Origin: Rotaria socialis
Lineage: Eukaryota
NCBI GenBank assembly: GCA_905331485.1
Contig: CAJNYT010000051.1
Coordinates: 407,310 to 471,309 of the forward strand
Reading direction: 5' to 3'
Length of the DNA stretch: 64,000 nucleotides
Part shown: in pieces, positions 21,236 to 54,922 of the stretch
Layout of the letters: the number at the start of each line of letters is the position of its first letter
Position numbering within the stretch: position 1 is the stretch's first letter
Program-made: the position numbers and the translations under genes
The notes under the pieces: generated by a model
What the model was told of the DNA's origin: nothing
Seen by the model: only the letters and a program-made list of their open reading frames with translations
Database searches by the model: none

Positions 21236-21500
21236 CCCAGGTCGAACAGTCCGGTCTGGAAACGGCAGGTTCCGTGTAGTTCCGTTAATTTTGTGGAAGC
21301 AGTATTCCGGTTGGAAAATTTTCGCATTTTTCTGGTGATTTCTGATTAATTCCTGCCGGAAAGCACCGGAACTTGCCAGGAGTTCGCCGGAAAAGTTCGG
21401 TCGTATTTTTCACCAGAATACAGCTTCCATGTTCCAGCAATTTCCCGCATATTTCCTGCAGTATCCTACGAGATCCGGCGGCCGGAATGTTTGACCCTGG
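21236..21500 (+). mobile_element. MITE-like foldback element (about 265 bp), copy 1. TIR CCCAGGTCGAACA...TGTTTGACCCTGGG
   Basis: Terminal inverted repeats plus an internal palindrome (ggaagcagtattccgg / ccagaatacagcttcc). 85-90% identical to 48821-49117. Confidence 0.75.
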
Positions 21501-22199
21501 GCTGAATTGAAAAAACTTTAGTTTTGTTAAATGATCTAAATTAAGAAAAAAATTAAGAATTTAGGATAATGCAAAAAGGGGAGTTTTATTTGCTGTATCA
21601 ATAATTTGTTTTGTATCTTTAGATTATGGTAAATAATGCAATATTTTTAATACGTATAAACAGGAGGATGAACAAATATACAACAAGTACGTTATATATA
21701 TATAAATTATTTTTGATATCTATTTTACAAGACTTTTAATTGAAGTTTGTGGTATCATCTATAATATGAAATTTAATAAAAAATAATAAGAAGTAAGAGT
21801 AAAATACAAGATTTGAGATAGACATATCTGGTCTACATACTAGAATAAAATGGAAAAGAATAAATAAATAAATAAACAATCGAATAGATAAGCGTTCAGT
21901 GTTGGACAAACTTTTAAACGAAATAGAAAAAATAGAAATCCATCCTTCAAAACGTAATGCATTAGTATCTTGATGAGAGAAAACGAACAAAATATCTATT
22001 AAAATTTACAATTTTTACCATAAAATTTTCTGTAATCACTGAATTTTAGAAATCTACCACAATATGAAATATATTTACAACAAACTTATTCTTCATAAGA
22101 TGTCACATACGTACAAAGTCTGGTGCGAGAAGCTCTCTTTGAGCAGGACTAGAGTTGTGACAGTTCACACCCACGGAAAAACAAATTCTTCAAAAACGC

Positions 22200-22460: not shown

Positions 22461-24041
22461 CAATTTTTCATGATTGGAAGAGTTGCGATAATCGTTGTGG
22501 TCATTGAAGAAGATAAATATAAAAACCTGTAGAAAAATTCGCAAATGATAGTGTTAATTTCCTTCAAGTCTTGGTATATGTTTACCATACTTTTTTCTGA
22601 TGATATTCAGACTAATTTTGTATCATAGAGCGAAGTGTCTAAGTGATTTCTCTCGATAATTAAGTATTGGATTATTCGAAGGAACAATAAAAAAAAGAAG
22701 TCTACGCCATGAATTCAAGTTTTCAATGATGATTTCACCTGCTCCAAGTTTAACGTAACTAAAAAGATTTTCATGTTTTCTTTTTGTGAGAAAGTGATAC
22801 TTTCATGGTAGTTTGTTAAATTATTGATAGAACGATATATGCTGCTTACAGAAATAAAACGTATTAAAAGTGAGCGGATCTTAGATATGTTTTTCTTAAA
22901 TATAGTGCAGAAACAAATATTTCATTTATTATGTAGTAAAACAAAGTTATCAAATAAAGAAAAATAAGAGAACAAACATAAAATACAGAAATTCATCACG
23001 ATTCATATAAGTTAGGAAAACGAGCAAGGTAACATACTCTGTCGTTTTCATAAAAACAACATTTCTCAATGACATTCCAAGCATCTATAAAATCAAATAC
23101 GTCATGTGAAATATTTCCATATATTGATCGAGATCAGCATTCTCTCGAATAATCAATAGTCGAGAAATAGTTTAGAAAAAAATTTATTTGAAAATTATGT
23201 TTTGTATGTTCAATCATGTTACTTATATTCAGTTTTGTATGCATAAAAAAACCGGTGAATGGCTATAGTTCATTTTTATGCTGCCCGTATTGATTTAATT
23301 GAAGGGCAATTAATTATTTGTATGGAAGTTCTTGATAGATTTTATCCAATTCTTCATTCATGTTTTAAACCAACTAATATGGTGTTAGATTTATTTATAC
23401 AAAGATTAGCAAAACATGTTTGTTCTGTTTTTATTTTATTGACAACGAATTCGTTTAGATTATTTTAGCACTTGATTATCTTTAATTAAAAAAAATTTAA
23501 TTCATCGAGATATAAAAACACAAAATATTTTAGTTGGACGCCACGCCAATCAATATTTAAATTATGTGATTTTAGAATATGTGGAACTTTGAAAGATTCA
23601 CTTTCATCAACTCATCGTTGATCATTACCAGGGTTGCATCTCTTCCGCTTTTTCGAATAAAACCTGTTGCATATCAAACATACGTACGGAATAATATTTG
23701 ATATTATTGAGTCAATTCTTATTGTTTACAAATACCGTGAGTCGTGATTCTTTTATGTTTGAAACTTTGATGAAATAAAAAGAAATCCAATAAACATGAA
23801 ACAATGCCTAATATTCTCAGAAGCATTACAAATCTGCAACAATATAAGCTTCAGCTTTTTAAGATCAGTTTTCCGCTTTTTAGACTTCATCAGGTGGCAA
23901 CCCTGACCCTAATAACAACACTTAGCTAGTTTTTGAGTATAATAACGGCGCATCATTACGAAAATAATATCAGAGAATTTATTCACAAATAGCATATCTA
24001 TTTATAATCGTTGTATAGGAATGATAACAAACTCGGTGACT

Positions 24042-24088
24042 GGACAATTCGTCGCGAGACAATTCGTCGCATGGACAATTCGTCGCAA
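24042..24088. repeat. Tandem array of 3 copies of a 14-bp unit GGACAATTCGTCGC (left arm)
   Basis: ggacaattcgtcgcgagacaattcgtcgcatggacaattcgtcgc. Confidence 0.85.
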
Positions 24089-24367
24089 TGTTAATTAATG
24101 AAAGAGAATATGAAATATCGCTCGACATAATTAAATCAAGTCGAATGCGTTGAACTTAATGAGTAAACCCACTATATTTTGAAAGATATTATCAATCTCG
24201 TGGAAAAGCTAATAGCTTGATGGGAAATTGAAAAAAAATCATTAAAAACAAATCATTAAAAACATTTTCATTTATCTTCCAATAAAAATAAAATGCTATA
24301 TTTTATCACAATTATTCTTTTCTCTCTTTGCTCTCTCTCTCTAGATTAAATTATGTTTACTGTATAT

Positions 24368-24503
24368 GCGACGAATTGTCCGTGCGACATATTTTTCTTG
24401 CGACGAATAGTCTGCGACGAATTGACTATGCGACGAACTGTCCATGCGACGAATTGTCCGCCACAAATTGTCCGCGACGAATTGTCTCGCGACGAATTGT
24501 CCT
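24368..24503. repeat. Tandem array of about 9 copies of GCGACGAATTGTCC, the reverse complement of the left-arm unit (right arm)
   Basis: gcgacgaattgtccgtgcgac...gcgacgaattgtcc repeated with 0-7-bp spacers. Confidence 0.85.
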
Positions 24504-25199
24504 AGTGCCAACAAACTCAACTAGTTGAGTGTTGTTATTAGGGTCAAAAAATAGCTTGACATCAAGATAAAAGTAAAAAGCCAGTTGTGTTGTTATTGGG
24601 GTCAACAAAAAAGCTGGCTGTTGTTATTAGGAACAAAATTTCTTTTTCGATTTTAGACCTTCTCGTTTGAAAAAATTTATTCCACCCAAACTAACATCGA
24701 GTTTTCATGAACCTTTGGTCAATAAGAGAGTTCGACACGTTCTACAAAACTGCTACAGACATCTCTCCTGTGTCTCTTATAGGAAATGTGAAAAAAACGT
24801 TTTATTTCTTGAAAAAGATCAATTTGCTTGAATTTTGTTAGTGTTGTTATTAGGGTAACTTACTCTACCGGTTACTACACTGTAAAAAATCATCATCCTA
24901 TCGACTATACAAACATGTAGCTGTCACACATTAAACATAGCGCGTGTACATTTCTGGAAACAAACTGAGCTATACGTAGGTATATCCACACTCCTAGGTT
25001 CAATTTTTCTTTAAAAACAAGTTCGTCATAATTAGTAAGCGTGAGTGCGTGTTTGTTTCATTAACCACCATTTAGAATTCGATTCTTTTTATCGAAGAAT
25101 ACAAAATATTCAAGCATTTCATGATTAAAATAAAATAAGTTTTAGATGAAAGTCATTCGGAAATAATTGAAGTCGTTCAGAATCAGTTCTCTCAGGGAT

Positions 25200-26940
25200 T
25201 GGTACGATCAATACCGACGAGTAAATGTTGAATAAACGGATGCCATGATGAATCTTTCAATTCTAATTGTCTGCAATAAATACCATTACGTTGGCCCGTT
25301 TGCTGATAGAATTCGATCGCCTGTTTTATTTTTCCATGCATGCTAGCCGGTAAATAGTTGTAAAGATTGATCTTAATGATAGAAGAGAAATTTGAATGAA
25401 GAATGACGATATCAAAAAACGAAATTGACTCACTTCGATTTGTTCAATACTAGTTAACATTTCAAACATATTCTGTTGTAATGATTGTGTTTTAAGAACG
25501 AGCCATAGAAGAATGACACCCGTACCAATCAAACGAAGAAGTTCGTTGCGTACATTCAAAGCTAATAAAATAAAATTCGTTTTTCTATACATCAGTATGA
25601 AAATCATCGAATATTACCGAGTGAATTAAAACCTTGTTCGCGCAAATAATGTTCAAGGCCATTAAAAATTTCAAAATCTATATGAAATACATCAGCTAAC
25701 TCTTTATTCAATATAAAGGAACCATCCTATATTTGAATTCAACAGAAAACAATAAATAAATGCCGTAAATGATAATCGATACTACCTCGAATTGAAGTTG
25801 CATAACTTCTTCAATCATAGTCTTTGTAGATTGAACATCTTTGAGCTTACCAAGAAGCGTGTCATCAATTGTTTTACCTAAATTCACGAATTATCAGTTT
25901 CTTTGGAGAATACTAACAAGACATTGACGAACCTAACGTAGTAGCAAGTTCACCCGAAAAATTATGTATTACAGTTTCGGTTTGGCCGTCAAGCTAACAA
26001 AATTAACAACAACAGAACAATTGAATTACAACAAAATGATATACTACGCACCGTGTACAATGGATCCTCAGGCTTGCGATCATAAACTAGAAAATAGAAA
26101 GAATTAAATATCATTTGTTTTTTTGAAACACTGACCAGATTTAGCTCGGAAGTTTGCATCACTCTCGACATAAGTAATATGTTGTTCAATGTCATCTACT
26201 GACGATCCTAGAAAAGTTTAAAATATATTTAAAGATCAAATGAAAACAAATCGAATAAATATCGTACTTGCGAGATCACCAGGATTGATAGTAATGGATG
26301 CTTTGGCACCGGAACGTGCTTCCTCGGCGTCAACACGAATTATACCATTCGCATCGATCTCCATTCGAATAGCTATTTCGAGCGTCTGAGCAGCAAAGTT
26401 ACGTGTTAGACCGCTAAGACACAATTCTCCCAATAGTAGCTAAAATAGAAAAAAAAGACTATAGAATGAAGTTTATCCATTTAGCTCACGACATACATTG
26501 TATTTCGTCAGATTATGTTCGCCTTCAAATATGCGAATAGAAGCTGTCGTTTGATAGGCATAAGCATTGGTGAATATTGAATAAAATTGAGTTCGCGTTG
26601 GAATCGTTGTATTACGACGAATAAGTGTGTGCATGTGACCGTGAGTATCTTCTACACCCAAGCCCAGTGCGCATACATCGAGGAGTAATAGGTTGTGGAT
26701 GGATCCCTGTGATGGCACATTATCTTTGGGTGTCCTATGAGAGATCAGTTTTTATTTTTATTATCATTTAAAATAATTTCACGAATAACGAATAACGGTT
26801 AACATTTAACCGTTGCACATATCTGTGAAATCGTACAGTACTTACATTTTTCGTTTTGCTTTCTTTATACATAACAGCGAATGTGAGACTGTACTTTCTA
26901 ATTCGATGTTTTGCATATCGCTATCATCGAAGCGCCTCTA
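25200..26940 (-). CDS. Hsp70-family gene portion encoding the substrate-binding domain (SBD-beta plus lid); no nucleotide-binding domain found upstream
   Basis: Exon about 26473-26735: TPKDNVPSQGSIHNLLLLDVCALGLGVEDTHGHMHTLIRRNTTIPTRTQFYSIFTNAYAYQTTASIRIFEGEHNLTKYN (compare the Hsc70 linker and SBD-beta LLLLDV...LIKRNTTIPTKQTQ...YEGER). Exon about 26239-26433: EIDANGIIRVDAEEARSGAKASITINPGDL (compare FDIDANGIL..ITITNDKG). Further C-terminal exons about 26110-26215, 25990-26090, 25640-25900 and 25200-25610. The upstream exon 26849-26940 (RRFDDSDMQNIELESTVSHSLLCIKKAKRK) joins in frame via the donor aat|gtaagt, but it is not NBD-like. Confidence 0.55.
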
Positions 26941-27099
26941 GAAGCGAGTGAAAATGTTGCAAAAATATTGCATACTCATTTACGTACTTCCGCCAATTTG
27001 AACAAGTGGTGCATTGGCTTATTCATTCTTTTGCATGAGGTATCAGATAAGGTACACATGCGGACTTTCGGTTGTGGTACCTGAGCTGTCTGCATGTAG

Positions 27100-30000
27100 C
27101 AGCTACCCCCACTACTACCACCAGCACGAGGTGCTACGGATGGTTGCTGTGATGACGATGATGAAAACGAAGAAGAAAAAGGTGTTTTAAAATAATCTAG
27201 GCCAGATGACGATATTGGTGAGATACCTAGAATATATAAATTTATGCAACTATCAATCGATCCACATGAATAATATGCTGAACTATGATAAATTATATTA
27301 CTATCATAGATAAAGTAATGAAGTATGATGATCTTTTAGATTTGCGTCATCATATTACTATCATATCCCTACTGAATGAAGATAAAGCTAAGATGATTGT
27401 ATATCACTTGGAGACAATGTTTCTTTAGAAAATATTATCTACCTGGCTTTGTTATTGATCGAAGTAAATTACACAAACTACAGTCTACTATTATGAAAAA
27501 TAGATATAGAATTTTCTTTTACTATAATTTTTTGAATTTGTCTTAGGAAACTACAATATTTACAACGGTATTGAACATCTATTTAGAAACAACAGGTCTA
27601 ATAGTAAATTACTGCAAACTATCCACCGCATATTCATTATACGCATAGCTTGAATTTATGAAATACAACATTATTTACATTTTGTATTCCGAGCTATGCT
27701 TTGTATTTCAATAAGACAATCAATAAGAACAATCGTAAGGAAAGCTAACTGTATACTGCGAAATGTACCATAGAATTCTAATGGACGCAACCGATTCAAA
27801 TATATTATGGCTACAGTGAAACTTCAGGAGTAACATGAATTGAGGAAATGATACTGATTGCGAAAGAGAAGTAGTAGAAGTAGCGGCTTTTCCCACCTCT
27901 AGATATTGTAAGTCTATCGATGATAGAAAATGGCAATGCCGAGTACAGAAATTAGTATTATTCTATTTGCGACTCACCAACTGCTGATTGATAATTCATT
28001 TGTGGTGCCATATTCGGAAAAGTTGCGTTGTTATTATTGGTGTTGTTTATTATTTGATCTTCTGCTTCGTTCATTAGATTTGATGCACTAGCATACATAA
28101 ACATACTCTGAGGTTGTTCACTAGTACCAGGGACTGCCATATCAGAATAGGGCTTTGATGTATCCATTGAGGATTTCCGAAAAGAGAAAAAGTTTGACAT
28201 TCCACCTCTATCTCTCGATGAAGATCTCCCTATGGTTAATTGTTGTTGTTGTTGTTGCTGCTGCCGCTGCGGTGGTGACATTGACATTGACATTGGCATT
28301 GGTGGTGCCGCTGGTGGTGACATTCTCATTGACATTGGTATTTGTAGTGGTGGTGGTGGCATTCTCATTGATATTGACATTGGTGGCGGTGGTGGTGGTG
28401 GAGGTAGTGGTGACATTGACATTGGCATTGGCGGTGGTGGCGGTGGTGGTGGCTGAGATGATTGCCAAGATACACTTGATGATGGAAGTAGTGGAACTAT
28501 TAATAAGAATTAAGGGAAATGCTTTTATATCTCGAATAGAAATAATGGGTTCTAGTAAAATGTATTCGGATAAATTAAGAACGATTTGGTAGCGTAGCTC
28601 CTTCATGTCTACCATTTGAAACTCATATATATATATTATTTTGCTTCCCTAAGCTAATGCAAACTATATATAAAGCAAAAACTCTTTCGTAGTGTTTAAC
28701 AAAAGATCTGCATACATCTAAGGCATCTACTTCCCGTTAGAAATGAAGACACAATGTTATAGGCCTAACTTAAAATATCACCTGTAGTTGTTTTACGGCT
28801 ACCGCCAAAATAATGCGCTGCTGAAGCAGTAGATTTTGATGAGCTTTGACATCGTTCCAATGATTTTGAAGCTAGAGAGAAACTAGACAGTGGCATGCAA
28901 GCAGGAATGGATGGAAAAAGGAAGAAAGGAAAAATGTCGAAAGGGAAAAATATCGAAAATAAAAATGTCGAAAACAAAAATATGAGGTGAAAATGACCAT
29001 GCAAGATTGAATTGAGGTTGAGGGGGACTTGTACTTCAAAATACTCTCGTTTTCAGCATTTTTATCCATCTACATTTGTATTAATTTTGTTTTCGATATT
29101 TTTATTTTCGACATTTTTCCCTTTCGATATTTTTCCTTTCTTCCTTTTTCCATCATACCGCAAGCAGTAACTTCACGTAGTCGTGGAGGTATTATGGGTG
29201 GCGCAGGAACTGACATTGTAAAGAGTATAAAGAAATAAGCTTGAAACTAAGAACAATTTCACTCATACTTCGTATTTTCTTCTCTTGTTTCGCTTCTTTT
29301 TTAGGCATTTCCTTTAACTTTGGCTGGGATCCTGATTTCGAAAGTAATTAAAATAAAATAAAATAGATTTCATAAATAGGTATCTGTACATTACTTTCAT
29401 TGATCTTTGTGGTAGGCATAAGATGACTCGTTGGAGAAGACATCCGCGTGTCCATGAATCGAACAGATCCAAAATCGCCGCCGCCACTACCACCGCCGCT
29501 ACCGGCAGCGCCTATAGTCGCCTTGCCACTCATTGAATCACCCTTTTTATGTTTCACTGATGACTCTAGTTTCAAATCACTGGATTTCTTCGATGATTTT
29601 ATCATTTCTAGGTTCTTTGCTAAAAATACAATCAAACATGAACTTCATGATATTGCTACTTATCGAAATATGAAATAGTCTATTCATTACTGATAGAAAA
29701 GTGGTAGTATTCAATGACGCAAGCTTCGTCTTTCTTTGTGAAATATAGTTGCTTTGCACTGCCAAGTACAGATTGAGACAAATAGTATAGTGCTGGGTTC
29801 GATATAATAATAATCCATATATATATATATATATATATATATATCGCCATTGAATGAATAAACTGGCATATTCTTGCAATAATCAAAAAGTTGACGAGTA
29901 CTTATGTATTCTTCTGGGAATCAATGCGTATAGAGATTTTGTAATTTACTCATTAAAGGGAACTTTACTTTCAAAGACTATCTAATAATTATCTGAATGG

Positions 30001-33000
30001 CTACTAATGTTCCAAAGCTATCGATAGGAAAACGGTTATGCCATATATCTGTCTATTGTGATTTCCTTTTCATTTTTGTCAATCAGATAAATATATTCAC
30101 TTTTTGAATGTTTTGATGACTAGTGCCTAGTTGAGGATGTGGACTAAGTCTACCGAACTATAATTCTTTATGGTACATTTAACATTTGTAATTCACTACA
30201 AATAGATAAATCAGTTGGTTTGAGCGACTTTATTGACTCCGAAAAAAAAAGTCTAGTAGTCCCTAAAATAACAGTGACAAACATATTAAATTAATGATAA
30301 TATCATCAAAATTTTTACTTCTCATCGTTTGTGCTAAGTGACCTCATTAAAAAAGAATGGAAGCAAACGCTATTTCACGAAAGTATTATTATGGTGTCCT
30401 TTGATGATTATAAAAATTGTATTACTTACTAAAATCGATATAGGAAGACTCATCCATAGTATCTAAACAGCTGAAATCGATATCGGAGTATGGATCAACG
30501 TCTGATTCTTTCGACTGTAACTGTGGCGATCCTGATGGCGCTTCAACTGAAGGAATATTCACTAAAAAAAATACAATACATTCAACCGCGAGTAGAAGTA
30601 CATAATCTAAGTGCTTTTTGAAAAGCAAACATTATCAAAAAAATTATTTTTCTCTACTATTATATTCAAAGCCTTGTATTTCTAAATGAAACATAAAAGA
30701 AAATATTTAGTACTACATAGTTATATTTTCCTAGATAAAATCAGTAGTATATTTTGGTTCTTTAATTGGTATTCAAGTTGCGTAGTTATTACACTGTAAA
30801 TTGACTTGTTTTTGGACATCATTCTTATACTCAAGCAGTATTTTATTCATTCTATTTTGGTTTTTTTTAGTACTCCAGAAATGCAACAAGGATGTAATTA
30901 ATATATTATAACTTAGAGTTATTCATATACAATGCACAATATAGCTGATAAAGTTCATGGAATACAAATGTGTCTAAATTTCTACTCTACATGTTCTAAG
31001 CCTGCTGTTAGATCATGTTGCACAGATGTTGAATAACTTACCACATCTAGAATAGGATGTGCCATCGTCGAACAAACCGAACCCCATATCATCGCCTTCA
31101 TCGTCTGACTCAATTGGCATTAACCGACGTTTCGATGAGCTCGTTTTTGAAACCATAGGTTTGGATGCTAAAATTAAAAACAGAAAATTTTAACGAACAA
31201 TAGAAATAAATCATGTATAACGTTTTGTAAAATTCAGTATCAGAATATTTTACTCTCTCCTGCGACATTCAAAAGTCTCTTCTGTCTGAAGGAAATATTT
31301 AGTATTGTACTCATCAATTTCTGAATGAAATAAATATATTTCGATTCAAGCATCGATTTTAAATATTTGACAATGAATTACAATATATATATATCAATTG
31401 ATATACGATCTGTAGTAAATCTGACAAAAACCGTGGGTTTCACGCGTGTTTAAAGTTCTACCGTATATACGTCAACCCTATTTTGACACGATATTTCTCA
31501 AAATTTGCATAACTCACCAGATACAGGAAAAGAGACGTTGCAGAGCAGGCGGCAGTGCAGATCCCCCTCGTCTTCATCATCTAATTCAGCCGATTTTGGT
31601 GATAATGCGACAGAATTTGGTACCAACTCATGCTTCTCTGCTAAAATTGAATACAGAAAGTTTCAAACAAAAGTAGCTACAAATAACTGATGTAATTTTA
31701 GAAAAGCAAAAGACTATAAAAACAATTTATTGCCGTTATGATTGTTGAACTATTTTTTTTCCGCAAAGCCGACATGGCTAGATAGATCTGGGCGATCTGG
31801 TTTGAAATGTTAACATGGAAGCTACTTGGTAGAGACCTTTTAGAAAAAAACAGTAGTTCCTGCTTTTTATATAAATAATGATAGAAAAACTCATTGTACT
31901 TATTGGTTTTTCATATGCAGATTCAGGCAGAATTTTCTACATCAGAATGAAAAAAATGAAATCTACACAATGATCTTTTTTTCGTAGTATTGATATATAA
32001 ATTTGTTGAAAACTGTTTCAGCCAAGAAAAAGAAAAGCTGTTATCATAATATGAGTACGGTGAAATTGTGAAATACGATGGAACTTCTAATATGGTAGAA
32101 GAGAAGATCCATCATGTTTCATCTTACGAATTTTAATCTCATATTAACGTTTGACAGGATTCAAATTCATTCGCTCACACTGCTATAGAAAATCTTTCAC
32201 GAAAAATGCACCACTTGCCTGATGAAGAAGCCCCGCCATCATCAAATAAGTCCCAGCACATTTCATCATCTGCATCCTCTGATTCTTCTGATGTTGACGC
32301 AGTTGACAATCCTTGTCTGCAAGATATAAGCATTCCTAAAAGTAAAGGCAGACTATTTCGATGAGAAATACAATTGCTGGATAGTTATAACTCAGCTTGC
32401 TGTTCATCGAATAATTTGTTGCTCAATCTTTCGTTTAAAAAATTCTCGTTTTACTTTGGATTTGGGTAAAAATGAGAAGGTCTATTTGTAAGTGTCCTGT
32501 TACAATTTTTATTATTTTATTATTTGAATCAATCAAAACAAGAACTGAGATGTTTCCTACCGACATATTTATTAAATCTACTTAAGTTTCAGCTGAAATC
32601 AATAAGGATGTAGAAAATGATTTTCATGTCACTCTCACCCTTCAACACACTATCTTTCAACATAAAAGTCTAATATGTGTATAATGTATTAATTACCTAT
32701 ATCACGACGTAGCTTTTTCTCCTTTTGTGATGATGAAAGTTCGATACGATCTATGCATTGGCTTTGTTCGGCTATCTGAACAAGAAATATTCATTTTTGT
32801 AGGAGTCCGAAAATCAGAAATGATTTTTTTAAATTACCGAATCGGACATGTTTTTTGCCAGCTGTTTTAATCCAGCTAGTGATTGAGTATGTTCCAATAG
32901 ATTAAGATCTAGTAAAACAAGATAAAAAATATTACTTGGAAGAAAAAAATTGTTTTTTTTCCACACTCTACATTGCGACATTTAACAAAATTCATACAAA

Positions 33001-33690
33001 ATGAGTAACGATCTTCATTACTATGAATGTTTACCATTTCGATTTCATTTAATCTCAATATCAAACATAAACTTTACTAATATCCATTGTTCATCTAGAG
33101 GTCGTACATTCTGATTAGAGCAAAATTGAATATTAATATAGTATTACTATCTCTCGCATGTTTTCCAGATTGTTATACTACTCTAAACTCTTTCTATCCA
33201 TTTAACAGCATTGTCAAAGAACAACCGATTGATCGAGTGAGCGACAACTAACTAGTGTAATGAATCGTTTTTAAAATTATCTATGACATTCAGAATGTCT
33301 AAGCATTATTTTATTGTTATTTTTTTCCTTCACGAATACGATCGAGTTCTTAGATTTATTGTTATCACTCAGTTTTTTCGGTAATAGTTTTAGAGCAGAG
33401 TTGGTACCGTAAAGAGCATACATACTATATATGAAAATAGAATCACTTAGATGCTATATGATGTACTTAGACTATAAAAATCAAACTCTTCTGTCTTTTT
33501 CTCTCGATTGTAAATTAAAAACTTTTCTTACCATCACCTTCGGGGAGTTCTTCAATTCTAGAGAAAGAAAGACAAATTTTGTTTTCGAATACAATCTTTC
33601 TGTTTTGTTACATACTCTACGTTCATTGTGATCCTTAAATTGTTTGCTGCACATCGTTGTTCTAATGCTTGTCGTTCTTCAGTTGTCGCG
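27100..33690 (-). CDS. Putative long multi-exon gene for a low-complexity protein; it may continue into the Hsp70-SBD exons
   Basis: Same-strand exon candidates: 33610-33690 (MLSATTEERQALEQRCAANNLRITMNVE, gtatgt donor), 32847-32915, 32690-32775, 32230-32335 (..SEDADDEMCWDLFDDGGASS), 31520-31640, 31025-31160 (..SDDEGDDMGFGLFDDGTSYS), 30430-30560 (DVDPYSDIDFSCLD..SSYIDF), 29350-29640 (Gly/Ser-rich), 27958-28500 (PPMSMS repeats, polyQ), 27100-27230. Linkage into one transcript is inferred, not shown. Confidence 0.3.
28232..28456 (-). repeat. Coding minisatellite: degenerate CAATGTCA/CCACCACCG repeats giving (P)n-MSMSM-(P)n protein repeats, plus an adjacent (CAA/CAG)n polyQ
   Basis: ggtgacattgacattgacattggcattggtggtg... 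repeated. The minus-strand translation is MPMSMSPLPPPPPPPPMSISMRMPPPP...QQQQQQQQ. Confidence 0.8.
28909..29152. repeat. About 70-bp near-perfect inverted repeat (arms 28909-28983 and 29085-29152) with an about 100-bp spacer; predicted long hairpin or cruciform
   Basis: The left arm ggatggaaaaaggaagaaaggaaaaatgtcgaaagggaaaaatatcgaaaataaaaatgtcgaaaacaaaa equals the reverse complement of the right arm, apart from 3 atgtcg/atatcg swaps. Confidence 0.85.
29817..29844. repeat. (AT)14 microsatellite
   Basis: atatatatatatatatatatatatatat. Confidence 0.9.
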
Positions 33691-33751
33691 CTGAGCATCT
33701 CATTCTTTATATCTATTTTATAATTTTTTGAAATAACAAATTTTTCAATAT

Positions 33752-36700
33752 CTATTCTAATCTAATCAACATACCGTTTCGCATTTTATCTTCAAGTTCA
33801 TTTGCTTTATCATGTTCATTTAATGAATGACGATATGTACGTATAATAGACATCATCATGTCGAATTTAGCATCACCACCTGCTCGATAGGAGATTTTCT
33901 CACAAAGTTTTTCAATATCAACAACCGACTCTTTTTTGCTAAGAATCGATGCACTTTCGAGTGAAACACGACCATCGATTAGTTTCTGTTTAATCAAAGC
34001 CAAACTTGATTTATCACCATCCCATTCTATGTATGGTAATATATCGACATCTCGATCAAGCATAACATCGATGAGACGAACGCCTAACATTGAACAAAAA
34101 AATCTAGTTATCATAGAATATGAGTTTTCTACAAACCTGGTTGAAGAGTTGACTGATCTGTTTTGGCATCACGTTCTTCAATGGCAACAAAACTGGTATA
34201 TGGACTGACAACAGAATAATTAATACTCAAATCTATGAGATCTTGTTTACATTGAATTTTAATCAATTCGTTTTCGCTTTCGTCTTTATGTAATACTCCG
34301 TTTTCATAATCGTCAATTATCGCTCGTGCAGTTAGACAATGTAGAATACGTCCTCTAGTTGTTGTCATTGGACTACTGAATACAGTAGTAACAAATTCTT
34401 GCCCATCGATAGTCGCCGTTAATGTTGCTTTGTGACAATTGTGTATAAATCGATAGACGCTGAGTCGCATTCCATCGAACAAAGATCGGATCATTTTTGG
34501 CGCTTGCATATTGAATTTTTGTCCTTCGTCCAAACCACCATGCCAATCAATCGATATACTTGTAACACATGGTTGTCGGGTATGTTCGAGGATCTCCAAT
34601 ACTTTTGTTTTCCACTTCGATCGATAGTTCGAATCGAATATTGTTACTAGACCACCTCCTCGTATCCCACGAGTTAACTGTTTCAAGCCATGCTTGTTAG
34701 CAACATTCCCAATTGAACATGCAAATAAACGATCACAACGCATAGTTGGTCGATGTTCAAGTAGAGCAATAATCGAATTAACATCATGGATATGTCCGTC
34801 AGATAAAAGAATAAATTGGCGACCCGATTTCGACGACGATAAAGATGGTAGTAATGAATAACGATGAAGAACAGCTAATAAATCTGTATTACCACGATGA
34901 ATAAGTGAATGCTAGAATATACAAATTTTATTAGAAAAACAAAATCATCTCAAACAAAAACTACCGACCAAAACAAAATGTTTGGCTTTATCTAGGTTCT
35001 CTTTTGTAGTTGGTGTTGAAATTGGAAAACATTCATCATTATCTAAATAGTTCAATTTTCAATAGTAGGCAAAATAATATGGTTGAGTATCGTCGTATTA
35101 CCTGACCCAAAAGTAACTACATTGAAATATGTATTTTTATTATCAACTTTCAAATTAGTAAGAAATAAATGAGCTAGCTGTTTAGCTTGTTGAACATGAC
35201 TACCATCCATTGAGTTCGATACATCGACAATGAAAATAATTTCGACTGTTTCGTTCGACATCGATAATGTTTCGAATCTTGGATAGAAAGTAAGTAAACA
35301 TGCTTCAGAATCGCGATTCTTCGATGTTGTTGTTCCATTGTTATCATCTAATGCCCATGTTTCATTTGATATTCGAGGCAAATTAGCACTTTTAAGTGTT
35401 ACCGAAAGAACAAAATCTCGATCGAGTAAAACATTATCGACAAGTTCGACCATGGCCATACAGTCGGTCAGTTTTCGACGAAGACGATGTGTCGGCGAAA
35501 ACAATTTGGTTATTTCATAGGGCATAAGAATAGATGTTTTGAAACTGAATTCGACTTTTTCGTCGACAATATCAATAGATCGTACAGTCGATTGATCTTT
35601 TGCTTCAATGGCTTGTTTCGATTGCCATGAAGCCATTTTTGCTGGAAGTCGAAAGATAATATCGCCATTTTCGATTTCTAATTCGGCAACATAGGTTATT
35701 TTGATAATGACTTCATTGTTGGCTGGTAAGTTACCAACAGCTACGCTGAATACTTGAGCCTGCTCCTGATGCATCAAATAGGCACCGTGGCCTTTTTCGA
35801 TTGCTTCTCGGTATTCTTGTTTGGCTTGTTCTTTCTCTTTGACTACACCTTTAATAATTTTATTATTGATATGTGCTTCAAAACCACATACAGTTGAATT
35901 TTCATCAAGTGGAAACACATATTTAGCTTCGATAGGTGTCGAACTCGTATTATGATAGACTTGATAGAGAACAACCTTATCGATGAAAACAAAACAGGAT
36001 GTATTAGTCGATCAAAACAACAGCTATAATTACTTCAACTGTAGCATCAACGATTTGAGCTCGAATATGAAATGATTTCAGTGGTACAAGTTTTCCCGAT
36101 GATGGACATACTAAACCATAGTCTTGTTCGGCTACTTCAATAATTTCATCATCAATTGTCAAGGGAACTTCGACTAGAACGTAGCAGATAACCTAGCTGA
36201 ATTTTATTGGAAGATAAAGAATCATTATTACCATGTTCACTGAGTTTTAATGCATGTTGCTCATGATGGACAACGGGTAAACGTTCTAGTGCAATATTGA
36301 TACTATCATTTGGTATCCATGAAACTTCCACAATGTAGAGTAAACGTTGTTGATCGAGTTGGTAAATTGCATATTCATTGTCCTATTCCAATAGAAATCA
36401 TATTTATTATTGCAACATTTAGCATGTCGGTATAAGTGACGCTGCTCCAACAATTTCGTATCTAGTTTTATTGAAAACAATGAATACAAAGATATAGAAC
36501 ACAATGTCAAATATTGATCTCTCGTTTTTCTTATTGTATTGCCACGCCATTCATGGCTGCCTGTTCACAACTATTCTCTTCATATTTTTATCGAATATGT
36601 GTTGAAACTCTGGCAATGATACACACGATAAAAATGCTTTCCACAAGCATTCGCGAGTGTAATATTATCAGAAACAATACAAGCAAGCTACTTACGCTAA

Positions 36701-38810
36701 ACATGGAACGATTTTCTTCCGTTCGTTTGACACCATGCGTGCTATGAAAACCATCAGGAGGTTTGGTGATTGTCGGTGAAAATGAATAATAATTCGCTGA
36801 TTCACCTAGGGCGACTTGACAAACACATAATAGTCGTCGACCTGGTCGCGTTGTGCTAGCTGTCGTATATTTTAGCGACGTAGAAACAGAGTCAGAAAAG
36901 TAAACTCCATAACCAAGACAACCAATATCAGTACGGACAACACCTAATTCTTCTACTACCATTTTTGGCATGGCCAAACCACTGAATGTATACATTCACA
37001 CAATAAATATTGTCTCGAGAGAAAGATGAATAGTTTACCGTGAAAGAATTCCAAGAAAATTGGCATATTTTGATCCATGAAATAGTTGCTGTTGATTAGA
37101 TAATGACGTTCGAAAGTTGAGTGCATCTGTTTGCTTGGCTACGCTGAATATTTGATGAATAACGATTTTTTCACCACTAACGAACCGAGAAGCCGATACA
37201 TGTGAAATCAAAATTCAATTCAACTCACTTATCTGTTGACGATTGAATATGTTCGGCAACATTCATAAATTCAGGTGTTGAACTATCGACCATTTCAATA
37301 TGACAGTTCAATGCTCGATATTTTGCTTCGATTGGAGCTTTAATATTCCAATTGGTTAGTTCATTGACTGTGAGCATATCTCGGAGTAACTAAACGAGCA
37401 AAACGTCCAATGAAATTATTAAAATAAATCGACATACCTGACATAAGTCAATTTTTTCAGTTAACGCTCGACGATTTTTTACGAGATCAACCTTATACTC
37501 CGCACGATGCGGAATAAGTGTATAGAAACGAAGCGCAGCAGCAGGATCATTCGTTGATTTGAGTTCAAGTAGTGCAGCCTCAGCTTCAATGATCTGTTCG
37601 GTAGTTTGAAATAAAACTTAATTGGAATACATAAAAGAAAATGAATATATGCGTACAGTTTTGAGAGTAATCGATTCAGGTAATATGCTCAATATTTTAT
37701 TCAAATCACCGATCGATTCTAACCAAACCGATTCAATCAATTGGCATACGTTATCATCGAGTATTTGTGTATCAATGCGATTAGCAAATAAAGACTAAAG
37801 ATATTTTATTTAGTATTGAAAATAAAACTTCTTAATTAATATCATTGACTTACGCGTAGTAATAGTTTTGATCCTAACTTATCTGGTAACATTTCACGAA
37901 TTCGTGTTACACGTGGCATTTTAGCTATTCGATAATAGTATGATGCAAATAATTGTTGTTGTTCGTTGGGTTCATCATCGAATGCATATTGTATCAATAC
38001 TTTATTATCTTGCTTTTGTCCTTGACTAACAATAGTCTGCTTTTCGTATCGAAACCGTAGTCGATAATCTGTCATTGCTCGATCAAAATATTGTTCAGGA
38101 ATAACTTGAAGTTCAAGAACAAAAAATACATCTGAATTGTCATTAGTTTCCTATGAAAAACAATTACAATAGAAGCGAACTAAAGTGATGAAAGAATATT
38201 AATCCTACTTTAAAAATGGCCCATTTGGCTATTTCGCAATGTGTCAATTCATCAAAACGAGGCAAATCAGCATCGTCTGCATTCCATAGTTTTACTTTAT
38301 TCAAATCAAAACGATTAGCTTTAATGCTAGTTGCCTGGGATCCTAACAAGTAGCTATGTAAGACATCAATCAAAACACAAGAACAACGATATGATACCTG
38401 CAATGGGAATAGTGCCTGTTTTTGTAAAATTCTCCTGATCTTCAACTGATTTGACAATAAATTTGCTAATGTCAATTGGCGTTTGACCCGACTGTAAACG
38501 TCGACATTCATATACATATTCAACATTGACCAATGGTAAGCCAAGTTGTTTTGCACGACGGACTTTGTAGCTATCGAAATTATTCGTAACAAATATGTAG
38601 TCAGTCTAGAATAAGTTCTAGTAAAACAGCATATATATATAGTATAGAAGAGCAACATACACTAGCAGTAAGTATGTATGAAATACGTGCTTGCTGTTCT
38701 CGTAAATAGTTGATCAACTCTTGCTTAGCCTTGAATCCTATTTCACGACCGAGCTCGAGTACAATTGTTTTACCATTGAATGGCGATAAAAATGTGGCAG
38801 ATACACTCAT
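33752..38810 (-). CDS. PARP4: Vault poly(ADP-ribose) polymerase (PARP4/VPARP)-like gene: BRCT-like N-terminus, PARP catalytic domain, VIT domain, VWA domain; multi-exon
   Basis: Exon blocks: 38601-38810 (N-terminus MSVSATFLSPFNGKTIVLELGREIGFKAKQELINYLREQQARISYILTA), 38164-38658 (helical/regulatory), 36588-36995 (PARP catalytic: LGYGVYFSDSVSTSLKYT...RRLLCVCQVALGESANYY, compare GKGIYFAD...LLLGEVALG), 35052-35918 (VIT: CGFEAHINNKIIKGVVKEKEQAKQEYREAIEKGHGAYLM...VFSVAVGNLPANNEVIIKITYVAEL; VWA MIDAS motif IFIVDVSNSMDG), 34129-34743 (VWA continuation), 33752-34114 (C-terminus, stop TAG at 33752-33754). The domain order matches PARP4. Confidence 0.75.
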
Positions 38811-43894: not shown

Positions 43895-45076
43895 ATGAAA
43901 TGGCTCTATTTTATCCTATTATTAATGGTGGCTATGCTTGTTTGTTTTGCGAAAAATGAACAGCAAACAGTGATATCTGAAATATATTCACTTGATGGCG
44001 ACTTCGACAAGATTCGGGCATCTGAACACATACAATTCGAATTGACTCACGTCAATAGTGAACCGAGTGTCATCATCGAAACGGAACAATGGTTGCATAC
44101 AGGCCAATATATAACTGTCACAACAAGACCGAATGATTGTTTGTATCCATGATTTGAAGAATACTGTCAGCTTTTACTCATAGCGTCCCATTTCCTTTAT
44201 GAATGTTAAGAAGAAGCACTTGATCTATTCAAACATGAAACGGGTTTTTTGAATATATTTCTATATGAAGAAAAAGATAGTTGAGCAAAGAGAAATATTG
44301 ATTTAATAGATTTCTTGAGCAGATTTGTTAGTTCAGTCTCATCGCAATGTGTTGCAAGTAAAGAAAAACTTTTATTTTTACCTTTTATTCTGAAGACACT
44401 TTATTGAAAAAAAAAAGAATTATTTCAAATTTGTTTGGCAGATCTTGATATCAAATTGGCGAGCGGCACTAATTATCCAGCAATCAAAGTGTATGTTAAT
44501 TACCGCAAAGCTCTCCTTAGTTTGGAAATAGATGGAATGTCGTCAATGAGATCAAGAAACGTCATTTTTAGTAATCCTTCATCGCTTTTGAATATTGCAC
44601 ATTCTGGAGCTGGCAGCGCAATACTCAAACTACAACACGGTTCTAATATTAATGTTGCCATATCTGGTACAGGCCAACTCTCTTTGTCCGGTCGAGTTCA
44701 AGGGAATGGACGATTGAGCGTCTCAGGTACTGCGCACTTGGATGCAATCGAGTGTCCAATGAATATTGCGACTGCTGAAGTGGCTGGATCTGGATCAGCT
44801 TCTGTTTATGGTGTAAAAGGAGTTCATGCCACCGTGAGTGGAGTTGGTAACATTTGCTATCGAGGACCTTTGCTTAGTCAAGTGATAAGTGGTCTTGGCT
44901 CGATCAAAGAGTGTATTGTTGAAGGGACACCTGCAGAACCTCAACAAACAGCTACAGAACCTCAACAAACATCTACAGAACCCCAAAATTCATCATCGCA
45001 AAGCGACAAAATCATGGATAGAAATCAACGATTATTAGTGATTCTTGCTACTACAGTTTTCTTTCTCTTCTTCTAA
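43895..45076 (+). CDS. Secreted, GPI-anchor-like protein with a Gly/Ser-rich beta-solenoid region resembling the bacterial DUF2807 (putative adhesin head, GIN) fold; 2 exons
   Basis: Exon 1 about 43895-44138: signal peptide MKWLYFILLLMVAMLVCFA, then NEQQTVISEIYSLDGDFDKIRASEH.... Candidate donor gtttgt at 44139 and acceptor tttggcag at 44441. Exon 2 44442-45076: ...AHSGAGSAILKLQHGSNINVAISGTGQLSLSGRVQGNGRLSVSGTAHLDAIE...VAGSGSASVYGVKGVHATVSGVGNICYRGPL..., followed by Pro/Thr/Gln repeats (TPAEPQQTATEPQQTSTEPQ) and a hydrophobic C-terminal tail (LLVILATTVFFLFF), stop TAA 45074-45076. Confidence 0.55.
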
Positions 45077-48519: not shown

Positions 48520-48670
48520 CTCGTTTCGCCGTAATCCGTCAGCTCGTTTTACGGACCGTTTTTCCGCTAGAAAACGGCCATCGTTTTTAACAAAATATTC
48601 GTCGTTTTCTGAGCTGACGGAAAACGGTGTCGTTTTTCAACGTTTTTTACGTCTTTTACGGCCATTTATG
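48480..48670. repeat. ACGG/CGTTTT-rich repeat related to 22200-22460
   Basis: cgttttacggaccgtttttccgctagaaaacggccatcgtttttaac...gacggaaaacggtgtcgtttttcaacg. Confidence 0.5.
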
Positions 48671-48820
48671 CACCGTTTTCTTGGACCTGGGTGGTTTCTC
48701 GTACACTTGGAAAAATAGTGCTGCTCATTTCAACTATTTCTCCTAATGACATATTCATCAATACACGTTGATTCACAATAGCCAAATCATCACATAAAAA
48801 TGTTGCAAACTCCTTGGTAT

Positions 48821-49117
48821 CCCAGGTCGAACAATCCGGCCTGGAAACGGCCGCTTCCGGGTAGTTTCGTTGATTTTGTGGAAGCAGTATTCCGGTTGGA
48901 AATTTGTCGCATTTTTTCCGGTGGTTTACGATTAATTCCTGCCGGAAAGCACCGGAACTTGGCAGGAATTCGTCGGAAAAGTCCGGCCGTATTTTTGACC
49001 GGAATACTGCTTCCATGTTCCAGCAATTTTCTGTGTTTTCCTGCAGGGTATGGTGCCTTTTCCGCATATTCCCTGGAGTATCTTACGGGATCCGGTGGCC
49101 GGAATGTTCGACCTGGG
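48821..49117 (+). mobile_element. MITE-like foldback element, copy 2 (about 297 bp), with a perfect 13-bp TIR CCCAGGTCGAACA / TGTTCGACCTGGG
   Basis: Direct-orientation homolog of 21236-21500. Internal palindrome gtggaagcagtattccggttgg / accggaatactgcttccatg. The overlapping ORFs on both strands (48666-49192) are artefacts. Confidence 0.8.
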
Positions 49118-50108
49118 ATACTCCTTTTCTGCATATGCAAAGAATTGTTGCGGATTCATAATAGCTATAAGTTAAAAATCGAAGCAAAATAAATAATGAT
49201 CACAAGCAGAAAAAAAACATACTGAAGAATATTTGACCGAACGACAAAATGAACAATGTAATTATGATATTGACACAATAAAGAACACAAGTTTTCGATT
49301 TAGTAATTGATTTCAGTGGACAATTTGCTCACACTCGCAAATATATGTGTAATGTGTGTACACATATACCTATTTCCATATGACCGGTCGTATTTTGTCC
49401 TTTCTTTTCTTTTCGTTCAGTAAGAAAAAGAGACCAAGTATGGCGCCATAGTACGATGGCTATACATTTCTAACATGATATTGGCAAGATAAAAGTGAAA
49501 CGATATCGAATGAGAGATTTTCTTCAATTCCTCAATGGTAAAATTACCTTTTAAACAAAAATGTGTTTATTCAATAGACATTTTTCAATAATAAAACTAG
49601 GGGATGAGAAGTTATTGTTAATTAGTAACAATAATAATAATTTTCTCGAAGAATCCGGCTCGCAGCTTTTCTTGATTATACAAGGTGTATCATAATGATA
49701 AGACCCTCTATTGACTTTTGAGAAAAATAAAAATTTCATTAACTAAAGAACGTTTCATTTCCAATTCAATGGCATATCTATCAGTGTCTAGTAGTAGTCT
49801 ATCATGTATCATATTTGCTTCAATTTGACCAATTAACGTCCATGAAGAAATTGAAAAATTTGAGTTTGAATTGCCTGATAATTATAAGACCGGCCTTTAT
49901 CACAATATGTGAATGCTAAATTCACCCTATCTTTACCAGCTCAAATGACCCTTTGAACTTTCTATTCGGAAGAGGAAATAGTTAGCTACACGTTGAAAAT
50001 ACGCTAGATGGAAAAAGCTAAGTTCAACTTTTCTATCGTTTAAGAAATTAAATTCAATGTCAAAACTACCACTATGTAATTCGAGAAAAGTAAATTTTCT
50101 GTTCCTTA

Positions 50109-54464: not shown

Positions 54465-54922
54465 GTTTCTTATTTTTTAAGCAGAATGTAATATGAAATG
54501 AGTTGTCTATACTATTGCAAAGTATCGAGCTTATATATTCAGAATGCAGTTGACTTTTTCCTACTCGTTGATGTATCTTATCAAGACTCTTGAGAATATT
54601 TACTAAGAAGAACAAAGTTTATTGCTCTTGGAATATATTGATGCAAATTTTCAGCATATAACATACAGAAGCAAGGAAGTACATGCCTATCTCAACCGTT
54701 CGAGAGACTTCAATGGTCTATGTTGGAACAAATAAGAAGATATGGCAATAAAGATTACAAGCGAATTTTTGTCATTGCAGTAAGTCAAATCAAACAAATT
54801 TACATTTTTTTTCCAAGTTTTTGCTTTGTTCGAAATTACATGTCTACATGTATATATAAATTACTTCAAAAAAAATACATCATTATACATCAAAAATTAA
54901 AAATTAAAAGCCAAAAGCGAAG
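54465..54922. promoter_or_regulatory. About 458-bp divergent intergenic region between GTPase A (-) and GTPase B (+); presumed bidirectional promoter
   Basis: Head-to-head gene arrangement. No element verified. Confidence 0.4.

Follow-up and report, generated by a model that had tools for sequence, protein, structure and literature searches.

An Hsp70-derived substrate-binding domain as a probable internal module of PARP4 in bdelloids

A substrate-binding domain (SBD) of Hsp70 that lacks the nucleotide-binding domain (NBD) cannot be opened by ATP, and an SBD that lacks lid helices B-E exchanges peptides quickly. The vault PARP, PARP4, is clade 5 of Citarelli, and this clade spans animals and Amoebozoa (PMC2964712). 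In the human protein the C-terminal MINT domain (residues 1562-1724) fastens this end of PARP4 to the inside of the MVP barrel wall, close to the waist, and the remainder of the protein reaches into the lumen (Lodwick et al. 2025, PMC12280208). The choice of vault cargo and the role of PARP4 inside vaults are open questions (PMC12280208). Both systems are found together in a stretch of 64,000 nucleotides from Rotaria socialis (GenBank assembly GCA_905331485.1, contig CAJNYT010000051.1, positions 407,310 to 471,309 of the forward strand). This whole stretch is called the window, and all positions below are window positions unless a locus is named. The analysis suggests that an Hsp70 SBD in the window is a conserved internal module of bdelloid PARP4, where it probably acts as an ATP-independent, vault-tethered peptide-binding module. 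The parts of the gene, as given by the exon model used here (model A), are as follows.

25192 to 38810, minus strand: whole gene, PARP4 (vault PARP) orthologue, 34 exons, 2115 amino acids (aa), from the ATG at 38810 to the stop codon TGA at 25194-25192
38504 to 38786, minus strand: BRCT, aa 9-84 (Pfam PF00533, E=6.5e-6)
36374 to 37539, minus strand: PARP regulatory and catalytic domains, aa 318-549 (Pfam PF00644, E=1.2e-25 for aa 391-549)
35691 to 36081, minus strand: VIT, aa 628-738 (Pfam PF08487, E=3.3e-37)
34657 to 35243, minus strand: VWA, aa 888-1044 (Pfam PF13768 and PF00092)
26704 to 34136, minus strand: linker, aa ~1218-1764 (open reading frames and junctions)
26846 to 26937, minus strand: exon 25 (RRFDDSDMQNIELESTVSHSLLCIKKAKRK), in frame and unrelated to Hsp70 (splice junctions)
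26497 to 26734, minus strand: exon 26, the remnant of the Hsp70 interdomain linker (NLLLLDV, 26694-26674) and the first half of the SBD beta-sandwich, SBD-beta (Pfam HSP70; DnaK and HSPA8 alignment)
26268 to 26439, minus strand: exon 27, the second half of SBD-beta (LLLGE...IDANGIIRVDAEE...ITINPGD; Pfam, alignment, and modelled strands with confidence scores of 85-92)
26136 to 26207, minus strand: exon 28, the sole lid remnant, equivalent to helix A (SSVDDIEQHITYVESD, which aligns to HSPA8 LSKEDIERMVQEAEKY; a single helix in the structure model)
25933 to 26086, minus strand: exons 29-30, the spacer from SBD to MINT, ~35 aa, predicted to be disordered (splice model and structure model)
25192 to 25877, minus strand: exons 31-34, the PARP4 MVP-interaction domain (MINT or MVP-ID), aa ~1947-2115, to the stop (alignment to human PARP4; PF26156)

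The Hsp70-derived sequence comprises the interdomain linker, SBD-beta and a single lid helix. The linker and SBD-beta lie on the minus strand in two exons (26734-26497 and 26439-26268) that translate as NLLLLDV...RRNTTIPT...IFEGEH...IDANGI, with ...SIHNLLLLDVCALGLGVEDTHGHMHTLIRRNTTIPTRTQFYSIFTNAYAYQTTASIRIFEGEHNLTKYN in the first exon and LLLGELCLSGLTRNFAAQTLEIAIRMEIDANGIIRVDAEEARSGAKASITINPGD in the second. The Pfam HSP70 match (PF00012, E=5.2e-25) is confined to profile positions 380-566 of 599, which are the linker and SBD, and a tblastn search of the whole 64 kb with HSPA8 and DnaK queries has its sole match at 26703-26287 (E=2e-13). The HSPA8, DnaK, BiP and mitochondrial Hsp70 references were sequences entered by hand. 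An earlier sequence-only reading of the window had recognized the Hsp70 linker and SBD-beta, and these matches and the predicted fold agree with it. That reading saw nothing resembling an NBD upstream; the same holds for the entire 64 kb, where tblastn at E<=10 and word size 2 finds no NBD-like sequence and thus no NBD exons spliced to the acceptor at 26735. All of the bdelloid homologues likewise lack the Hsp70 NBD, which is the ATPase. The reading also listed lid exons. Helix A (exon 26207-26136) is indeed Hsp70-like, while the remaining 3' exons are not lid, and those at 25877-25192 encode MINT. The alignment to HSPA8 and DnaK stops after helix A, so that helices B-E are not found, and in place of an EEVD- or HDEL-type tail the window protein ends in ...GIDRTNP.

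The exon upstream of the SBD is unrelated to Hsp70 and joined in frame via aat/gtaagt, as had been seen before, and its position is now 26937-26846 instead of 26849-26940. Its upstream junction is GAA/gtacgt...tctag/AGG across a 50-nt intron, and its downstream junction is AAT/gtaagt...atag/G across a 111-nt intron. The ten exons from 26937 to the stop at 25192 form a single open frame in which all of the introns are GT-AG and 49-111 nt long.

Structure prediction points to a complete beta-sandwich. An AlphaFold2 (AF2) model of an R. socialis protein 97% identical to the window product has a sandwich with predicted local distance difference test scores (pLDDT) of 85-92, followed by a lone helix at residues 352-364, disorder at 381-409 and a helical bundle. 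In Foldseek searches the sandwich matches isolated SBDs of BiP, Hsp70 and DnaK; the best match is 5e85 (E=2e-12, root-mean-square deviation (rmsd) 2.5 A over 141 columns), and crystals of lid-truncated BiP oligomers (7a4u, 7a4v) are among the best. At what are presumably the pocket positions of DnaK (F426, A429, Q433, V436, I438 and I401), three residues are identical (F426, A429 and Q433), two are either I or V (I438 and I401), and V436 is replaced by A. From fold and residue match, SBD-beta is predicted to keep the hydrophobic peptide pocket and to bind peptides. A two-residue insertion precedes the FTNAYAYQ segment and is lacking in Didymodactylos carnosus. The linker motif D[LV]LLLDV is kept in most of the orthologues and reads VLLADV in one of them (P0019).

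The gene that contains these exons is by its sequence a PARP4. The exons for BRCT, PARP, VIT and VWA are found 8-12 kb upstream of the SBD on the same strand, and Pfam searches of the open reading frames (ORFs) on that strand place BRCT at 38.6 kb, the PARP catalytic domain at 37.2-36.6 kb, VIT at 36.0 kb and VWA at 35.2-34.1 kb. The gene spans about 13.6 kb in the order BRCT, PARP, VIT, VWA, linker, Hsp70 SBD and MINT. A public R. socialis protein, CAF3318428.1 (UniRef A0A817TLV5, 2121 aa; P0256), has the PARP4 domains as well as the SBD-MINT end and maps collinearly on 38810-25195. Model A is 96.3% identical to this protein, with all junctions refined to GT-AG and one terminal stop, and Pfam finds BRCT, PARP_reg, PARP, VIT, VWA and HSP70 in it as one protein. 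Residues 218-1207 of model A align to residues 201-1182 of human PARP4 with E=5.7e-177, the best sequence match in the PDB, while PARP1 and PARP2 match the model A N-terminus at only ~1e-21 and PARP3 is also far below PARP4. The catalytic domain matches human PARP4 8swy (E=6e-37) with H, Y and E aligned, and the H-Y-E triad is kept in LFHGS (37085-37071), GVYFSD (36908-36891) and DNEYAIY (36382-36362).

The C-terminal exons encode MINT. A phmmer search of the PDB aligns this region to residues 1575-1703 of human PARP4 (9bw6, 9bw7, 11jf; E=1.6e-6), and homologues carry the precomputed Pfam annotation PF26156, 'PARP4 MVP-ID C-terminal domain'. In an exhaustive phmmer search of 1.84 billion representatives, the MINT matches are bdelloid proteins and C-termini of vertebrate PARP4 (camel, emu, killifish and mole rat) only. 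The AF2 model has a MINT helical bundle with pLDDT 80-94, and the SBD is about 70 residues N-terminal of it. The gene therefore has every feature by which PARP4 can be recognized in sequence (BRCT, PARP, VIT with VWA, and MINT). It is a PARP4 carrying an Hsp70-derived domain and is not an Hsp70, because it has neither the NBD nor the C-terminal tail and lacks most of the lid. The earlier suggestion of a domain-shuffled gene with only an SBD holds as far as shuffling is concerned, since the SBD is in a foreign protein, and fails on the other part, since the SBD is internal to PARP4. The low-complexity Pro-rich and acidic exons noticed upstream are real and are the PARP4 linker.

The SBD is under strong purifying selection. 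Between the window and its R. magnacalcarata orthologue (L001), the ratio of non-synonymous to synonymous substitution rates (dN/dS) is 0.09 for SBD-beta (124 codons, with 13 synonymous and 4 non-synonymous changes), 0.26 for MINT, 0.32 for helix A plus spacer and 1.8 for the linker before the SBD. The family-specific motifs FTNAYAYQTTA, FEGEH.LTKYN and NF..QTLEI are invariant or nearly so in Rotaria, Adineta and Didymodactylos. The SBD of D. carnosus retains DKGRLT, the signature of cytosolic Hsp70. Against the hand-entered references, the window SBD scores 98.6 bits with the BiP type and 92 with the HSPA8 type, and the D. carnosus SBD scores 113 and 119 bits, respectively; both types outscore DnaK and mitochondrial Hsp70. 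The source thus looks more like a eukaryotic Hsp70 of the cytosolic or endoplasmic reticulum type, with BiP and HSPA8 types not separated by score, and horizontal transfer from bacteria is therefore unlikely. Seven metagenome loci (L020-L026) were rejected as full-length SBD donors. They are ordinary fungal BiP genes with a GC content of 46-53% that matched a degenerate pattern by chance, and the two of them followed as far as the 3' end, L020 and L021, have a terminal HDEL.

The same architecture is found in other bdelloids as single gene models or ORFs, in A. ricciae, A. vaga, A. steineri, D. carnosus and an environmental bdelloid. The Hsp70-derived module occurs in every bdelloid genus that was sampled. 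Single models with PARP, VIT, VWA and HSP70 are present in A. ricciae (P0235, 2063 aa) and D. carnosus (P0232, 2098 aa) as well as R. socialis. The 2063 codons of the A. ricciae gene fill about 80% of its 7.75 kb, with short introns only and no spacer. In A. vaga, the models FUN_002086 and FUN_013713 each combine Pfam Hsp70, PARP, VIT and VWA (Moris et al. 2024, PMC10809525, supplementary tables). A metagenome scan gave 13 further loci with SBD and MINT; only L018 and L019 have long upstream flanks, and in both BRCT, PARP, VIT and VWA are directly upstream. One ORF of L018 joins the post-VWA helix of PARP4 to a calmodulin EF-hand, and a second extends from the C-terminal helix of calmodulin through an acidic stretch into the first half of the SBD. 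These ORFs are a physical linkage of PARP4 and SBD that is independent of gene predictors. Overall the continuity of the gene from BRCT to MINT is well supported by sequence, and even if there were two genes the SBD is fused to the PARP4-derived MINT.

The SBD insertion is provisionally bdelloid-specific, judged against vertebrate PARP4s. The strong SBD+MINT matches are all bdelloid or unlabelled AT-rich metagenome contigs, and the vertebrate PARP4s examined (alpaca and emu) have no Hsp70 match. The qualification is made because there are other invertebrate PARP4s beyond the vertebrates compared: the best matches of the A. vaga genes are PARP4-like proteins of coral, starfish and annelid (PMC10809525 tables). 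Homology searches with the VWA tail and with VIT-VWA gave short fragments only, in which the architecture of non-bdelloid invertebrate PARP4 is not visible.

Paralogues differ in what precedes the SBD. Calmodulin-type paralogues have an EF-hand domain in the linker just before it (L018 9245-10240; P0162; P0007, which is L004 9929-10226), and A. vaga FUN_024910 combines PARP, VIT, EF-hand and VWA (PMC10809525 tables). No calmodulin exon is present in the window locus. Other paralogues have FG-like repeats before the SBD (LFGSSTSSTTISFGASPFG, APSFGS...SFGF) in A. steineri and D. carnosus (L002 9300-10050; P0018, P0027 and P0232). These repeats are reminiscent of nucleoporin FG repeats. Because paralogues carry calmodulin or FG-like repeats in the same linker, the linker may be a slot for interaction modules.

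Expression in A. vaga fits a role in the stress response. After desiccation and X-rays the two PARP4-Hsp70 models have log2 fold changes of 4.5 and 1.8, and MVP genes are present, several of them induced by radiation (PMC10809525). The more strongly induced model, FUN_013713 (~4.5), which ranks among the strongly induced genes, is listed by one table under 'HSP / Hsp70 protein' and by another as a base excision repair (BER) PARP (PMC10809525). This model also holds a mitochondrial-carrier domain, probably from a merged neighbour.

A mechanism can be proposed from the order of the domains. If bdelloid MINT docks as in human, it would anchor PARP4 inside the MVP barrel, and the SBD would be kept on the lumenal side of the vault, no more than a few nanometres from the wall. 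Since the NBD and most of the lid are gone, an ATP-independent clamp that accepts substrates and exchanges them rapidly is expected. The ligands of such a clamp might be hydrophobic segments exposed on cargo or damaged proteins, or else a particular linear motif. Captured clients could then be kept in the vault near the PARP4 catalytic domain, with the module serving as a holdase or cargo receptor. A further step is rather unlikely as it stands: the bdelloid vault would be a stress-induced, ATP-independent holding compartment in which PARP4 clamps docked on the wall (calmodulin or FG-like repeats in the paralogues) capture unfolded or specific clients during desiccation or irradiation, and these clients might be ADP-ribosylated. 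If this were true, the vault would have a concrete task at the molecular level and a defined mechanism of cargo selection.

Several observations weigh against a continuous PARP4 gene with a vault-docked peptide clamp, and they are considered here together with the explanations that they favour. One such explanation is that there are two adjacent genes, a PARP4 without its docking domain followed by a gene for a low-complexity N-terminus, the SBD and MINT, which would be a stand-alone, vault-targeted SBD protein. The loci of R. magnacalcarata (L001), A. steineri (L002) and Rotaria sp. Silwood1 (L003) are annotated in this way, with the SBD gene following a PARP-VIT-VWA gene on the same strand. 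In A. steineri the boundary between the two coincides with a scaffold gap of 10 N inside one ORF, with LFGxSTSxTTxSFGASP repeats flanking it on both sides, and in Silwood1 the stop of the upstream gene is inside a consensus GTAAGT donor, from which two short introns join the SBD gene in frame. In R. magnacalcarata the Pro-rich repeat exon carries a 29-bp deletion, by which a junction of the 28779/28497 type is out of phase with the SBD. This locus also has a 1.26 kb insertion (L001 8572-9831), opposite window 28561/28554, in the putative intron that separates the Pro-rich exon from the last exon of the 1688-aa gene. The donor GTTCGA at 29465, used in model A and P0256, is weak, and its GT is absent from L001. 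Exact exon usage in the linker is the least certain part of model A, because the linker introns are 0.5-1.5 kb in a gene that otherwise has introns of 48-62 nt, and they hold further plausible exons. In the R. magnacalcarata paralogue L004, calmodulin is followed by linker, SBD and MINT, while the 10 kb upstream contain no PARP, VIT or VWA, and exon 25 of the window has an internal ATG (MQNIELES...) at which a separate protein could start. However, exon 25 has an open frame and splices in frame, as do the exons that precede it, four species have single models, the A. ricciae gene has no spacer, single L018 ORFs link parts of PARP4, calmodulin and SBD, and MINT is by definition the C-terminal domain of PARP4. 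Two genes are accordingly improbable. The earlier reading had also offered a decayed Hsp70 copy, and a functionless fragment or pseudo-exons accidentally included in gene models would agree with the absence of the NBD and the EEVD end, with the loss of most of the lid, and with dN/dS above 1 in the adjacent linker. This explanation has next to no probability. It is already refuted at the level of sequence evolution by the dN/dS of the SBD, and the fold is predicted with confidence, FTNAYAYQTTA and FEGEH.LTKYN are common to three genera, 13 further environmental loci have the module, and the A. vaga genes are expressed and induced.

Other points concern function rather than gene structure. The SBD may bind the linker of PARP4 itself, either DLLLLDV or another disordered segment, in cis as auto-inhibition or compaction or in trans as head-to-tail chains in the vault. 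In oligomers of Hsp70 and BiP, the SBD of one protomer takes the interdomain linker of its neighbour as a substrate. Most of the orthologues conserve the LLLL linker even though no NBD remains for it to dock on, the presumed pocket residues are kept, and the BiP oligomer crystals are among the best structural matches, all of which would agree with self-binding. On the other hand, the calmodulin-type paralogue keeps the SBD without LLLL, and P0019 has a variant motif, so that self-binding is quite unlikely as the main function. The same paralogue has also lost part of RNTTIPT, the arch residue M404 of DnaK is T in the window (T, I or V across the family), and loop L1,2 is altered, and these changes count against a conventional peptide clamp. 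For docking, the human MVP-contact residue S1614 is conserved, while K1618 is replaced by N and R1689 by Q, with an R one position earlier, and the MVP residues that bind PARP4 are stated to be vertebrate-specific (Lodwick et al.). Because of these differences, vault docking of bdelloid MINT is an assumption taken from homology only. A PARP4 with an internal SBD that acts as an ATP-independent peptide-binding module remains the probable reading.

The linker is the most variable part of the gene. Its first part, directly after VWA, is a helical segment (exons 34083-33775 and 33712-33616), and it continues as acidic, Pro/Gln/Ser-rich sequence of low complexity that shares only short conserved islands with other genera. 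A splice programme that maximizes coding length was rejected for the linker, where it over-called junk exons, and the protein-guided model was used instead. Motifs and candidate exons in this region are as follows.

32179 to 32335, minus strand: candidate linker exon with a second acidic-aromatic motif (EDADDEMCWDLFDD), outside model A (ORF)
31064 to 31093, minus strand: acidic-aromatic motif DDMGFGLFDD in exon 20 (31167-31042), the same in P0256
29160 to 29331, minus strand: candidate linker exons 29331-29263 and 29209-29160 (KEAKQEKK...SVPAPPIIPP), from homology and in frame on the coding-maximizing path
28780 to 28882, minus strand: candidate linker exon (SKSLERCQSSSKS...TTT), the last exon of the R. 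magnacalcarata 1688-aa model
28261 to 28496, minus strand: candidate extension of exon 23 with Pro-rich PPPPMPMSMS repeats, within the first coding exon of P0002 (start Met inside) and skipped in P0256

The acidic-aromatic motif recurs in bdelloid PARP4 linkers. Nine residues, DDMGFGLFD, are identical to what is presumably the C-terminal tail of ribosomal stalk P proteins (SDDDMGFGLFD). Variants in other linkers are DADIGFDLFVD (L003), GGIGWDVF (P0232) and ADFGFLDCLDE (P0235), and another acidic-aromatic motif, DIDFSCLDTMDESSYIDF, is found in the window at 30496-30431 on the minus strand. The candidate exon at 32179-32335 has a 3-nt indel relative to L001 that preserves the frame, yet it has many non-synonymous changes. 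The exons at 29331-29160 are homologous to the EEKKK...SVPAPPPMPP segment of P0003 and P0009, and the candidate exon at 28780-28882 contains a +3 indel relative to L001. The acceptor aatag/TTCCAC (28497) is conserved in L001, and in the window it is in frame with the donor ACAG/GTGATA at 28779. A foldback element has 63-nt inverted arms at 29151-29089 and 28975-28913, with 3 mismatches, 15-nt repeats and a loop of ~113 nt. It sits within what is a single exon in R. magnacalcarata and is absent from L001, and the window frame needs it to be spliced out.

Other features of the window are outside the PARP4 gene. Just downstream of its stop are tandem 16-nt repeats (TGCGACGAATTGTCC), with 9 copies at 24367-24503 and 3 inverse copies at 24041-24087. 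A divergent pair of long single-exon ORFs (52557-54476 on the minus strand, 640 aa, and 54908-56413 on the plus strand, 502 aa) encodes AIG1/GIMAP-like P-loop GTPase domains. The ORF at 44408-45073 on the plus strand (222 aa) matches Pfam DUF2807, 'putative auto-transporter adhesin head GIN domain' (E=7e-18). This domain is typical of bacteria, and the gene was possibly acquired horizontally. ORFs at 48669-49189 and 21288-21560, on both strands, have similar peptides, GSSIPVKNTAGLFRRIPAKFRCF and GSCILVKNTTELFRRTPGKFRCF, which suggests that they are two copies of a repeated and possibly mobile element.

The fusion has implications for vaults, for Hsp70 and for gene counts. A PARP4 with a chaperone-type peptide-binding domain beside its vault anchor points to a testable mechanism of cargo capture, in animals noted for their tolerance of desiccation and radiation. 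It is also a rare natural Hsp70 SBD that is under strong selection without an ATPase, and it is relevant to the question of what such a domain achieves by itself. Studies that count HSP and PARP genes in bdelloids are affected, because FUN_013713 is tagged both ways and several assemblies split the gene. The proteins are public under automatic names and the domain combination is visible in published supplementary tables; a description or discussion of a PARP4-Hsp70 fusion was not found in the literature.

Four known systems are close to the bdelloid protein. Human and vertebrate PARP4 (9bw6, 9bw7, 8sx1) share with it BRCT, the PARP H-Y-E triad, VIT, VWA, a long disordered region and the C-terminal MINT, but they have no SBD, while the bdelloid protein has an Hsp70 linker, SBD-beta and helix A before MINT. 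The SBD of canonical Hsp70 (HSPA8, BiP and DnaK) has the same beta-sandwich (rmsd ~2.5 A, 36-45% identity) with LLLLDV, RNTTIPT and IDANGI. The bdelloid module differs in lacking the NBD, helices B-E and EEVD or HDEL, in its altered loop and arch, and in being embedded in a PARP. Lid-truncated BiP and Hsp70 constructs and oligomers (7a4u, 7a4v, 5e85) are similar in that their SBDs have little or no lid. However, these are laboratory truncations or regulatory states of chaperones that bear an ATPase, whereas the bdelloid truncation is natural and permanent. The engineered fusions of vault cargo to MINT (PMC12280208) also place a foreign module directly N-terminal to MINT and are bound for the lumen. 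In contrast to them, the bdelloid fusion is natural, ancient within bdelloids and part of PARP4, and its packaging into vaults is a prediction.

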